Positions 1 through 557 of a DNA stretch of 557 nucleotides are shown here, one piece after another. Source of the stretch: Escherichia coli (GTDB taxonomy: Bacteria; Pseudomonadota; Gammaproteobacteria; Enterobacterales; Enterobacteriaceae); assembly GCF_003334815.1 (NCBI RefSeq), contig NZ_QOWO01000128.1; one strand, written 5' to 3'. The notes under the pieces are model-generated. The model did no database searches. It was given only the letters and a program-made list of their open reading frames with translations, and was not told where the DNA came from. The number at the start of each line of letters is the position of its first letter. The first letter of the stretch is position 1. Position numbers and translations under genes: made by a program.

Positions 1-57
1 GTCCTTCATCGCCTCTGACTGCCAGGGCATCCACCGTGTACGCTTAGTCGCTTAACC
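1..57 (-). rRNA. rrl: 23S ribosomal RNA, 5' end only (gene continues beyond the left edge of the window)
   Basis: The reverse complement of 1..57 reads GGTTAAGCGACTAAGCGTACACGGTGGATGCCCTGGCAGTCAGAGGCGATGAAGGAC, which matches the canonical 5' end of enterobacterial 23S rRNA as I recall it. The mature 5' end (GGTTAAG) falls at position 57. Boundary is from memory of the mature end, not from mapping. Confidence 0.93.
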
Positions 58-231
58 TCACAACCCGAAGATGTTTCACTTCAGAGTTGCGAAAATTTGA
101 GAGACTCACGAACAACTTTCGTTGTTCAGTGTTTCAATTTTCAGCTTGATCCAGATTTTTAAAGAGCAAAACTTCGCAGTGAACCTTTGCAGGTACACTC
201 TGAAGTATTTTTTATTTAATCACTACAGAGA
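58..231 (-). other. Transcribed spacer between tRNA-Ala and 23S rRNA (distal part of the 16S-23S ITS)
   Basis: Lies between the tRNA-Ala 3' end (232) and the 23S 5' end (57). AT-rich, with no ORF carrying a plausible start and ribosome-binding site on either strand. Contains the boxA-like motif and a tetraloop hairpin listed separately. Confidence 0.9.
156..168 (-). promoter_or_regulatory. boxA-like rRNA antitermination element in the spacer
   Basis: The reverse complement of 156..168 is TGCTCTTTAAAAA, which closely resembles the rrn boxA consensus (GCTCTTTAACAA), the NusB/NusE-binding element of the rRNA antitermination system. A spacer copy of boxA between the tRNA genes and 23S is a known feature of E. 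coli rrn operons. Exact extent is approximate. Confidence 0.6.
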
Positions 232-307
232 TGGTGGAGCTATGCGGGATCGAACCGCAGACCTCCTGCGTGCAAAGCAGGCGCTCTCCCAGCTGAGCTA
301 TAGCCCC
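232..307 (-). tRNA. alaT: tRNA-Ala, anticodon UGC, 76 nt, CCA encoded
   Basis: The reverse complement of 232..307 is GGGGCTATAGCTCAGCTGGGAGAGCGCCTGCTTTGCACGCAGGAGGTCTGCGGTTCGATCCCGCATAGCTCCACCA. It has the G3:U70 identity pair of tRNA-Ala, a D-loop (AGCTGGGAGAGC), anticodon TGC (plus-strand GCA at 272..274), a T-arm (GGTTCGATCC) and a 3' CCA. This matches the E. coli spacer tRNA-Ala(UGC). The paralogue (alaT, alaU or alaV) cannot be told apart from this window; the symbol is the family representative. Confidence 0.97.
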
Positions 308-349
308 ATAACATGTAGTTAAAACCTCTTCAAATTTGCCGTGCAAATT
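308..349 (-). other. Short spacer between tRNA-Ile and tRNA-Ala
   Basis: 42 nt between the two tRNA genes. Contains an 8-bp inverted repeat (332..339 pairing with 343..350) that abuts the tRNA-Ile 3' end. Confidence 0.9.
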
Positions 350-426
350 TGGTAGGCCTGAGTGGACTTGAACCACCGACCTCACCCTTATCAGGGGTGC
401 GCTCTAACCACCTGAGCTACAAGCCT
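350..426 (-). tRNA. ileT: tRNA-Ile, anticodon GAU, 77 nt, CCA encoded
   Basis: The reverse complement of 350..426 is AGGCTTGTAGCTCAGGTGGTTAGAGCGCACCCCTGATAAGGGTGAGGTCGGTGGTTCAAGTCCACTCAGGCCTACCA. It has a cloverleaf with anticodon GAT (plus-strand ATC at 390..392), a T-arm (GGTTCAAGTCC) and a 3' CCA. This matches the E. coli spacer tRNA-Ile(GAU). The paralogue (ileT, ileU or ileV) cannot be told apart; the symbol is the family representative. Confidence 0.97.
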
Positions 427-494
427 GTAGAGGTTTTACTGCTCATTTTCATCAGACAATCTGTGTGAGCACTGCAAAGTACGCTTCTTTAAGG
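427..494 (-). other. Transcribed spacer between 16S rRNA and tRNA-Ile (proximal part of the ITS)
   Basis: The reverse complement begins CCTTAAAGAAGCGTACTTTGCAGTGCTCACACAGATTGTCTGATGAAAATGAGCAG, directly after the 16S 3' terminus. This matches the enterobacterial ITS sequence that forms one half of the 16S RNase III processing stem. Confidence 0.9.
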
Positions 495-557
495 TAAGGA
501 GGTGATCCAACCGCAGGTTCCCCTACGGTTACCTTGTTACGACTTCACCCCAGTCAT
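495..557 (-). rRNA. rrs: 16S ribosomal RNA, 3' end only (gene continues beyond the right edge of the window)
   Basis: The reverse complement of 495..557 is ATGACTGGGGTGAAGTCGTAACAAGGTAACCGTAGGGGAACCTGCGGTTGGATCACCTCCTTA. This is the universally conserved 16S 3' domain: the binding site of the 1492R universal primer, helix 45, and the anti-Shine-Dalgarno CCTCC (plus-strand GGAGG at 498..502). The mature 3' end is at position 495. Confidence 0.96.

Follow-up and report, generated by a model that had tools for sequence, protein, structure and literature searches.

A 557-nucleotide stretch of Escherichia coli DNA assigned to the tRNA-Ile/tRNA-Ala spacer of the rrnD operon

Identity of the window

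The 557-nucleotide (nt) stretch of Escherichia coli contig NZ_QOWO01000128.1 analysed here, hereafter the window, raises the question of which ribosomal RNA (rRNA) operon it comes from, and whether anything is encoded in it beyond the parts of such an operon. The window is almost certainly the internal transcribed spacer of the E. coli rrnD operon with the adjoining 16S and 23S ends, shown as the antisense strand. An earlier note, made from the sequence, had assigned all 557 bases to a 16S 3' end, tRNA-Ile, tRNA-Ala, a 23S 5' end and the spacers between them, read from the minus strand, and had called the window not a novel system. Both statements stand, since the parts sum to 557 nt (63 + 68 + 77 + 42 + 76 + 174 + 57) with no base left over, and the whole is an exact match to the annotated K-12 rrnD. 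The parts, in the direction of transcription, are as follows.

495..557, minus strand: 3'-terminal 63 nt of 16S rRNA (rrsD), ending ...GGAUCACCUCCUUA-3', identical to the annotated rrsD
427..494, minus strand: spacer from 16S to tRNA-Ile, 68 nt, whose positions 437-490 supply the trailer side of the RNase III helix that joins pre-16S leader and trailer
350..426, minus strand: tRNA-Ile(GAU), ileU, 77 nt, CCA encoded (ARAGORN, Rfam and annotation)
308..349, minus strand: spacer from tRNA-Ile to tRNA-Ala, 42 nt (annotation), holding the 3' arm (317-329) of a helix that brackets tRNA-Ile
232..307, minus strand: tRNA-Ala(UGC), alaU, 76 nt, CCA encoded (ARAGORN, Rfam and annotation)
58..231, minus strand: spacer from tRNA-Ala to 23S, 174 nt (annotation)
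1..57, minus strand: 5'-terminal 57 nt of 23S rRNA (rrlD), starting GGUUAAGCGACUAAGCG..., identical to the annotated rrlD

Direct string search places all 557 bases exactly at 3426727-3427283 on the plus strand of NC_000913.3, where rrlD, alaU, ileU and rrsD are annotated on the minus strand with boundaries precisely equal to those of the window's parts. In the K-12 MG1655 annotation this match is flanked by yrdA on one side and by a 5S/tRNA-Thr/5S/yhdZ tail on the other, and the operon is therefore rrnD. The reverse complement of the window has a megablast match in all 5,426 of the 5,426 complete E. coli genomes searched. Comparison with K-12, which the earlier note had proposed as a check, gives 100% identity over the full length, and full-length 100% matches annotated as 16S, tRNA-Ile, tRNA-Ala and 23S occur in many strains, including K-12 MG1655 and also O26, O103, O111, C600 and J53. 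Identity to annotated loci in so many complete genomes means that chance is not an issue, and it also means that the window alone cannot name the strain.

An Rfam scan at a permissive threshold and an ARAGORN search for tRNA genes, both on the whole window, return the same parts. The tRNAs had been predicted on the minus strand at 232..307 and 350..426, and ARAGORN gives exactly these coordinates. The Rfam tRNA matches are at 353-426 (tRNA-Ile, 66.3 bits) and 235-307 (tRNA-Ala, 65.6 bits), both on the minus strand with E ~1e-14 and a gathering score of 29. The rRNA covariance models, a further proposed check, match at both ends of the window, with SSU_rRNA_bacteria model positions 1471-1533 at 495-557 (minus strand, 61 bits, E 6.5e-17, gathering score 50) and LSU_rRNA_bacteria model positions 1-57 at 1-57 (minus strand). 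The anti-Shine-Dalgarno CCUCC of the 16S rRNA lies at 498-502.

The first 13 nt of the tRNA-Ile (window 414-426, minus strand) correspond to Ile-tRF-5X, which is reportedly abundant in E. coli outer-membrane vesicles and has a claimed effect on human MAP3K4 expression (PMC9514646).

Assignment to rrnD among the seven operons

The earlier note stated that three of the seven E. coli rrn operons (rrnA, rrnD and rrnH) carry the Ile/Ala spacer and the rest tRNA-Glu. This agrees with the K-12 reference annotation (NC_000913.3), which has tRNA-Ile together with tRNA-Ala in rrnA, rrnD and rrnH, and tRNA-Glu in rrnB, rrnC, rrnE and rrnG. The three Ile/Ala operons have a common architecture, identical tRNAs and nearly identical spacers, as an origin of the window in rrnA or rrnH would allow. 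However, in an alignment of the three spacers the window differs from rrnD in 0 columns and from rrnA and rrnH in 17 columns each, a 9-nt block indel among them. The plus-strand orientation of the window is also the reference orientation of rrnD, the sole Ile/Ala operon on the minus strand of NC_000913.3. An rrnA or rrnH origin is thus extremely unlikely. Two caveats apply: gene conversion shifts blocks between operons, as the short block of rrnG indicates, so that in other strains the allele may sit at another rrn locus, and operon names differ in K-12 W3110, where an rrnD/rrnE inversion swaps the labels and the Ile/Ala operons are rrnA, rrnE and rrnH (PMC5179076).

The block that separates these alleles lies next to 23S.

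78..86, minus strand: variable block, short allele (CUCUGAAGU), seen on aligning the three Ile/Ala spacers and also the full set of seven operons

In rrnA the block reads CACGAUGAUGAAUCGAAAG, 9 nt longer than the CUCUGAAGU of the window, and the long block of rrnH is near-identical to it. Within K-12 the short block is found only in rrnD and the Glu-type rrnG, while the other five operons have the long block. The 23S-proximal spacers measure 174 nt in rrnD, 183 nt in rrnA and rrnH, 184 nt in rrnG, and 193 nt in rrnB, rrnC and rrnE. Apart from the block, the stretch from boxA to 23S is common to all seven operons. Blocks assort independently in the K-12 rrn spacers, which are therefore mosaic, as gene conversion between rrn copies would lead one to expect. 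An Ile/Ala spacer with a short 23S-proximal block is also usable as a typing marker.

A short block resembling that of rrnD is also present in one Citrobacter amalonaticus spacer.

Taxonomic source

When the best match in each record of the E. coli collection is taken, identity is at least 99% in 2,039 records (~38%) and 95-99% in 3,388, and the allele combination of the window is therefore common but not universal in E. coli. The E. coli species representative matches the window at 97.5% because it has the long-block allele. Shigella lies phylogenetically inside E. coli. A source in a close relative with an identical spacer, such as Shigella, another Escherichia or another enterobacterium, finds some support in the 31-mer around the spacer boxA, which is exact in Enterobacter, Citrobacter, Klebsiella, Kluyvera, Phytobacter, Salmonella and E. 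coli (one genome per bacterial species). This part of the spacer is not species-specific and is therefore not diagnostic. Over the whole window, however, the six non-Escherichia genera reach only 79-93% identity in alignments broken into pieces, and their tRNA-Ile to tRNA-Ala distance is 61-114 nt, an extra 20-70 nt over the 42 nt of E. coli. Against these values stands the full-length 100% identity to many E. coli strains, K-12 MG1655 included, and a source in a relative is unlikely. The window sequence sets E. coli cleanly apart from the six genera. Of the sources that the earlier note had named as most likely (Escherichia/Shigella or a close enterobacterial relative), Escherichia is supported, and on sequence comparison the source is E. 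coli at the resolution of the collections compared.

The longer tRNA-Ile/tRNA-Ala spacers of Enterobacter, Klebsiella, Citrobacter, Phytobacter and Salmonella contain a conserved self-complementary segment, GCATAC...GTATGC (alignment columns 150-245). Loss of this segment, with retention of the helix that brackets tRNA-Ile, seems to have taken place in the lineage of E. coli.

Leader-trailer helices of the pre-rRNAs

The spacers flanking the two tRNAs carry strands of the long helices that join the leader and trailer of each rRNA precursor. Duplexes were computed with rrnD sequence beyond the window, and z-scores are relative to dinucleotide shuffles. The 16S trailer (437-490) forms a duplex with the 180 nt upstream of rrsD at a free energy (dG) of -67.5 kcal/mol (z -12.1), and the tRNA-Ala-to-23S spacer forms one with the 92 nt between rrlD and rrfD at -66.5 kcal/mol (z -5.7). 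Control duplexes, of the 16S leader with the 23S trailer and of the tRNA-Ala-to-23S spacer with the 16S trailer, give -39.8 kcal/mol (z -0.4) and -33.0 kcal/mol (z -1.5), respectively. Leader-trailer helices are cut by RNase III, including a 27-bp pre-23S helix (PMC10250234). Two elements of the pre-23S side are placed by these computations.

59..78, minus strand: leader strand of the pre-23S leader-trailer (RNase III) helix, the innermost run of the 23S duplex
107..131, minus strand: central hairpin of the tRNA-Ala-to-23S spacer, predicted in the cofold and in the minimum free energy (MFE) fold

In the cofold, which allows intramolecular hairpins, positions 98-104 and 136-157 also pair with the 23S trailer, with the central hairpin at 107-131 between them.

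boxA, the boxB-like hairpin and StyR-44

Three further elements overlap or adjoin this leader region.

156..168, minus strand: spacer boxA UGCUCUUUAAAAA, read from the sequence, with the published core UGCUCUUUA at 160-168
171..206, minus strand: boxB-like hairpin just upstream of boxA (local fold, dG -15.5)
65..164, minus strand: match to StyR-44 (RF01830), model positions 1-107 of 107, 106.9 bits against a gathering score of 54, E 7e-18

Conservation and pairing were assessed in an alignment of 15 Ile/Ala spacers from six genera, in which pairs were counted against an explicit structure. All seven K-12 operons have the same spacer boxA, and in this alignment it does not vary between genera. 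The rrn boxA consensus UGCUCUUUA, which boxB precedes, is found in the leader as well as in the spacer; NusB/NusE bind it, and the antitermination complex is then built (PMC6614797). Judged by its sequence, the boxA of the window would be such a NusB/NusE loading site of the rrn antitermination complex. The boxB-like hairpin is specific to the Ile/Ala type, with a different hairpin at the same place in the Glu-type operons. It is paired in 99.5% of cells, and because its sequence is almost invariant it yields no covariation evidence.

StyR-44 was described as Salmonella Typhi npcRNA 44 and lies upstream of 23S in all seven operons (PMC2943607). The match in the window has an 8-nt gap in the last hairpin, which coincides with the short block and is caused by it. 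The strength of the Rfam score and the growth-rate-regulated northern signals in S. Typhi and E. coli (PMC2943607) could suggest that the tRNA-Ala-to-23S spacer encodes an independent regulatory small RNA gene. Such a gene would need sites of its own, and the window is without a promoter-like or terminator-like site, a weak negative given that consensus patterns only were used. StyR-44 is also made up of boxA and a single strand of the pre-23S leader-trailer helix, and this composition fully accounts for its being conserved. According to its discoverers, it arises by processing of longer precursors and could be a metastable intermediate of maturation (PMC2943607). An independent gene is very unlikely, and the StyR-44 stretch is probably a processing intermediate.

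A helix bracketing tRNA-Ile

The bases just 5' of tRNA-Ile are complementary to those just 5' of tRNA-Ala.

429..440 (5' arm) with 317-329 (3' arm), minus strand: bracketing helix of 12 bp around tRNA-Ile, found as inverted repeat I2 (13 nt, 92% complementary)

The duplex has a dG of -13.3 to -14.0 with z about -4. In the 15-spacer alignment the whole structure is paired in 87.9% of cells, compared with 31-46% when partners are slid by 1-3 columns. For the bracketing helix the value is 93-96%, and one of its pairs is C-G in 8 spacers, U-A in 7 and unpaired in 0. The helix is kept across enterobacterial genera despite an intervening spacer that ranges from 42 to 114 nt. The central hairpin of the tRNA-Ala-to-23S spacer is paired in 87.8% of cells and has both-sided changes at 5 of its 10 pairs across genera. 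Covariation thus supports two helices, the central hairpin and the helix bracketing tRNA-Ile. A literature search, in which older rrn work is thinly covered, found no prior description of the bracketing helix. It is conceivable that this helix is a functional, little-noticed processing or folding element that orders the excision of both spacer tRNAs, and that the short block of rrnD and rrnG likewise subtly alters pre-23S processing, but we regard this proposal as doubtful.

A ~25-nt insertion (…GTTCTCCGTAATAAGAAC…) lengthens the tip of the central hairpin in Citrobacter sp. R56, Phytobacter, Enterobacter sp. 10-1 and C. portucalensis (alignment columns 455-480, corresponding to window 116-121). 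From its sequence, it looks like a self-complementary expansion segment.

Three other candidate structures were rejected. A local hairpin near 23S in the rrnD register (58-92, with pairs at 65-84) is paired in only 44% of cells and is not conserved, as can be expected of a block so prone to indels. Inverted repeat I3 (197-206 with 78-87, 10/10 complementary) was considered as an rrnD-specific long-range helix. It is 57% paired, a value that 459 of 500 shuffles reach, and its 5' arm is already in use in the boxB-like hairpin, so it is taken as coincidental. Inverted repeat I1 (159-181 with 470-492, 74% complementary), as a pairing of the boxA region with the 16S trailer, gives a duplex z of only -1.5. 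This repeat seems to reflect the similarity of the spacer boxA region to the 16S leader, with which the trailer truly pairs.

Open reading frames and the antisense strand

Ten open reading frames (ORFs) of 20-66 amino acids are spread over both strands; the longest lies on the plus strand (122-322) and begins with TTG. The plus strand also has sub-threshold Rfam matches to HPnc0260 (30.5 bits against a gathering score of 59), OxyS (17.5 against 75) and Plastid-ycf2 (17.6 against 65.7). These ORFs and matches are what a functional product of the plus (antisense) strand, either a small protein or an antisense RNA, would have in its favour. The ORFs, however, are all short, mostly with non-ATG starts, and overlap tRNA genes or spacer helices. 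The Rfam matches fall far under their gathering scores with E values of 0.3-0.7 and lie over tRNA complements, which give such pseudo-matches because they are self-complementary. With no promoter-like site on either strand as well, a functional antisense product has next to no probability. The small ORFs and the HPnc0260, OxyS and Plastid-ycf2 matches were rejected as antisense shadows of the tRNAs plus chance. The repeats, inverted repeats and small ORFs of the window can be seen as by-products of the tRNA cloverleafs and the pre-rRNA processing helices.

Proposed processing of the transcript

The model proposed here starts from what was observed in the window, namely its identity, gene boundaries, helix complementarity, boxA and the covariation in two helices. 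The enzymes involved, the antitermination and the fate of the fragment we infer from the literature, in which co-transcription with the rRNAs and processing by RNase III, RNase E, RNase P and others are described (PMC10250234, PMC5179076). The window would be transcribed from right to left within one long precursor that starts at the rrn P1/P2 promoters, far outside the window. The spacer boxA, with the boxB-like hairpin ahead of it, would reload NusB/NusE and the rest of the antitermination complex, allowing it to read through the 23S gene. The 16S trailer (437-490) is expected to pair with the 16S leader, and the 23S leader (59-78 together with 98-104 and 136-157) with the 23S trailer. RNase III would then cut both long helices and free pre-16S and pre-23S. 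The short helix that joins the bases 5' of the two tRNAs would bracket tRNA-Ile, and both tRNAs would be cut out of the spacer by the general tRNA processing enzymes. The leftover piece from boxA to 23S may survive briefly, and this is presumably what was catalogued as StyR-44.

The consensus scan found no promoter-like or terminator-like site on either strand of the window, which is consistent with read-through transcription, and an internal promoter was rejected as a candidate on this negative scan. The riRNA promoter lies further upstream, within the 16S gene, and a control probe over an rrn spacer bound no RNA polymerase in atomic force microscopy (PMC5179076).

No result contradicts the reading of the window as an rrnD spacer processed in this way, but it has four limits. 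As just 57 of the model's 2925 nt are present, the LSU_rRNA_bacteria match scores 30.2 bits (E 1.9e-7), under its gathering score of 50; membership in 23S is settled by the exact identity to the annotated rrlD. In the MFE model 59-78 goes into a local hairpin (58-92) in preference to the leader-trailer pairing, and the two structures compete in silico. Support for the bracketing helix comes from a single covarying pair among 15 related sequences. The consensus promoter scan is crude, so that weak internal promoters are possible, and PMC5179076 cites a report of a weak promoter, Pi, in the spacer of rrnB.

Misplaced rrn copies in databases

An Ile/Ala spacer filed under 'Desulfovibrio' was rejected as an assembly chimera. 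It lies at 11724-14492 of USBZ01000017.1, a contig of the metagenome-assembled genome (MAG) UMGS1580 ('uncultured Desulfovibrio sp.'), where ~11 kb of sequence with 55-59% GC runs into a 16S gene. The first ~800 nt of this 16S are only 57-85% identical to E. coli, while from about 16S position 830 through the Ile/Ala spacer into 23S the sequence is essentially 100% E. coli. The join is inside the 16S gene, and the rRNA operon of this MAG is therefore untrustworthy.

rrn operons on E. coli plasmids were rejected as well: each record examined is a mislabelled chromosome, a piece of one, or a chromosomal interval joined into a circle. E. coli 'plasmid' records in PLSDB include several of 4.8-4.9 Mb (whole chromosomes), others of 0.4-1.3 Mb (chromosome pieces) and others of 6-20 kb (rrn-sized contigs), and such mislabelled records account for the 14 'plasmid' matches in the E. 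coli genome search. NZ_OY843411.1, 'pF524-3' (93,760 bp, circular; twin NZ_OY757140.1), is entered as an E. coli plasmid, with a single rrn operon, and is typed as non-mobilizable. Upstream of its operon are fadAB-pepQ-yigZ-trkH-hemG, the upstream flank of rrnA, and downstream are hdfR-maoP-yifB-ilvLXGME, the downstream flank of rrnC. The record is therefore the ~90-kb rrnC-rrnA chromosomal interval, with a hybrid rrn operon at the point of closure. Rather than a true plasmid, it is probably the circular assembly of a tandem duplication, or of an excision, between rrn operons in direct repeat.

Comparison with known rrn spacers

The window shows no difference from the rrsD-ileU-alaU-rrlD spacer of K-12 MG1655 rrnD, and gene boundaries and strand orientation are equal. 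The proper label is thus the rrsD-ileU-alaU-rrlD spacer, minus strand, to be left out of searches for novel systems.

The rrnA and rrnH spacers are alike in architecture, with both tRNAs, boxA, the boxB-like hairpin and the RNase III stem strands identical to those of the window. They are unlike it chiefly in the 9-nt-longer 23S-proximal block (a spacer of 183 nt against 174 nt) and in 1-3 point differences. The Glu-type operons rrnB, rrnC, rrnE and rrnG have the first ~45 nt after 16S and the boxA-to-23S stretch in common with the window, but carry one tRNA-Glu(UUC) in place of tRNA-Ile and tRNA-Ala, another boxB hairpin and a 16S-proximal spacer of 85 or 171 nt.

StyR-44 matches over the full length of its model and lies at the same place upstream of 23S; the copy in the window is best taken for a stretch of the pre-rRNA spacer, not for a gene of its own. 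In the Ile/Ala spacers of other Enterobacteriaceae (Enterobacter, Klebsiella, Citrobacter, Salmonella and Phytobacter) the gene order is the same, the tRNAs and the boxA region are invariant and the helices are kept, whereas the central hairpin differs in sequence with compensation and sometimes has an extension. The window has all of the testable features that define the Ile/Ala class of enterobacterial rrn spacers, and is an ordinary, already known reference member of it.

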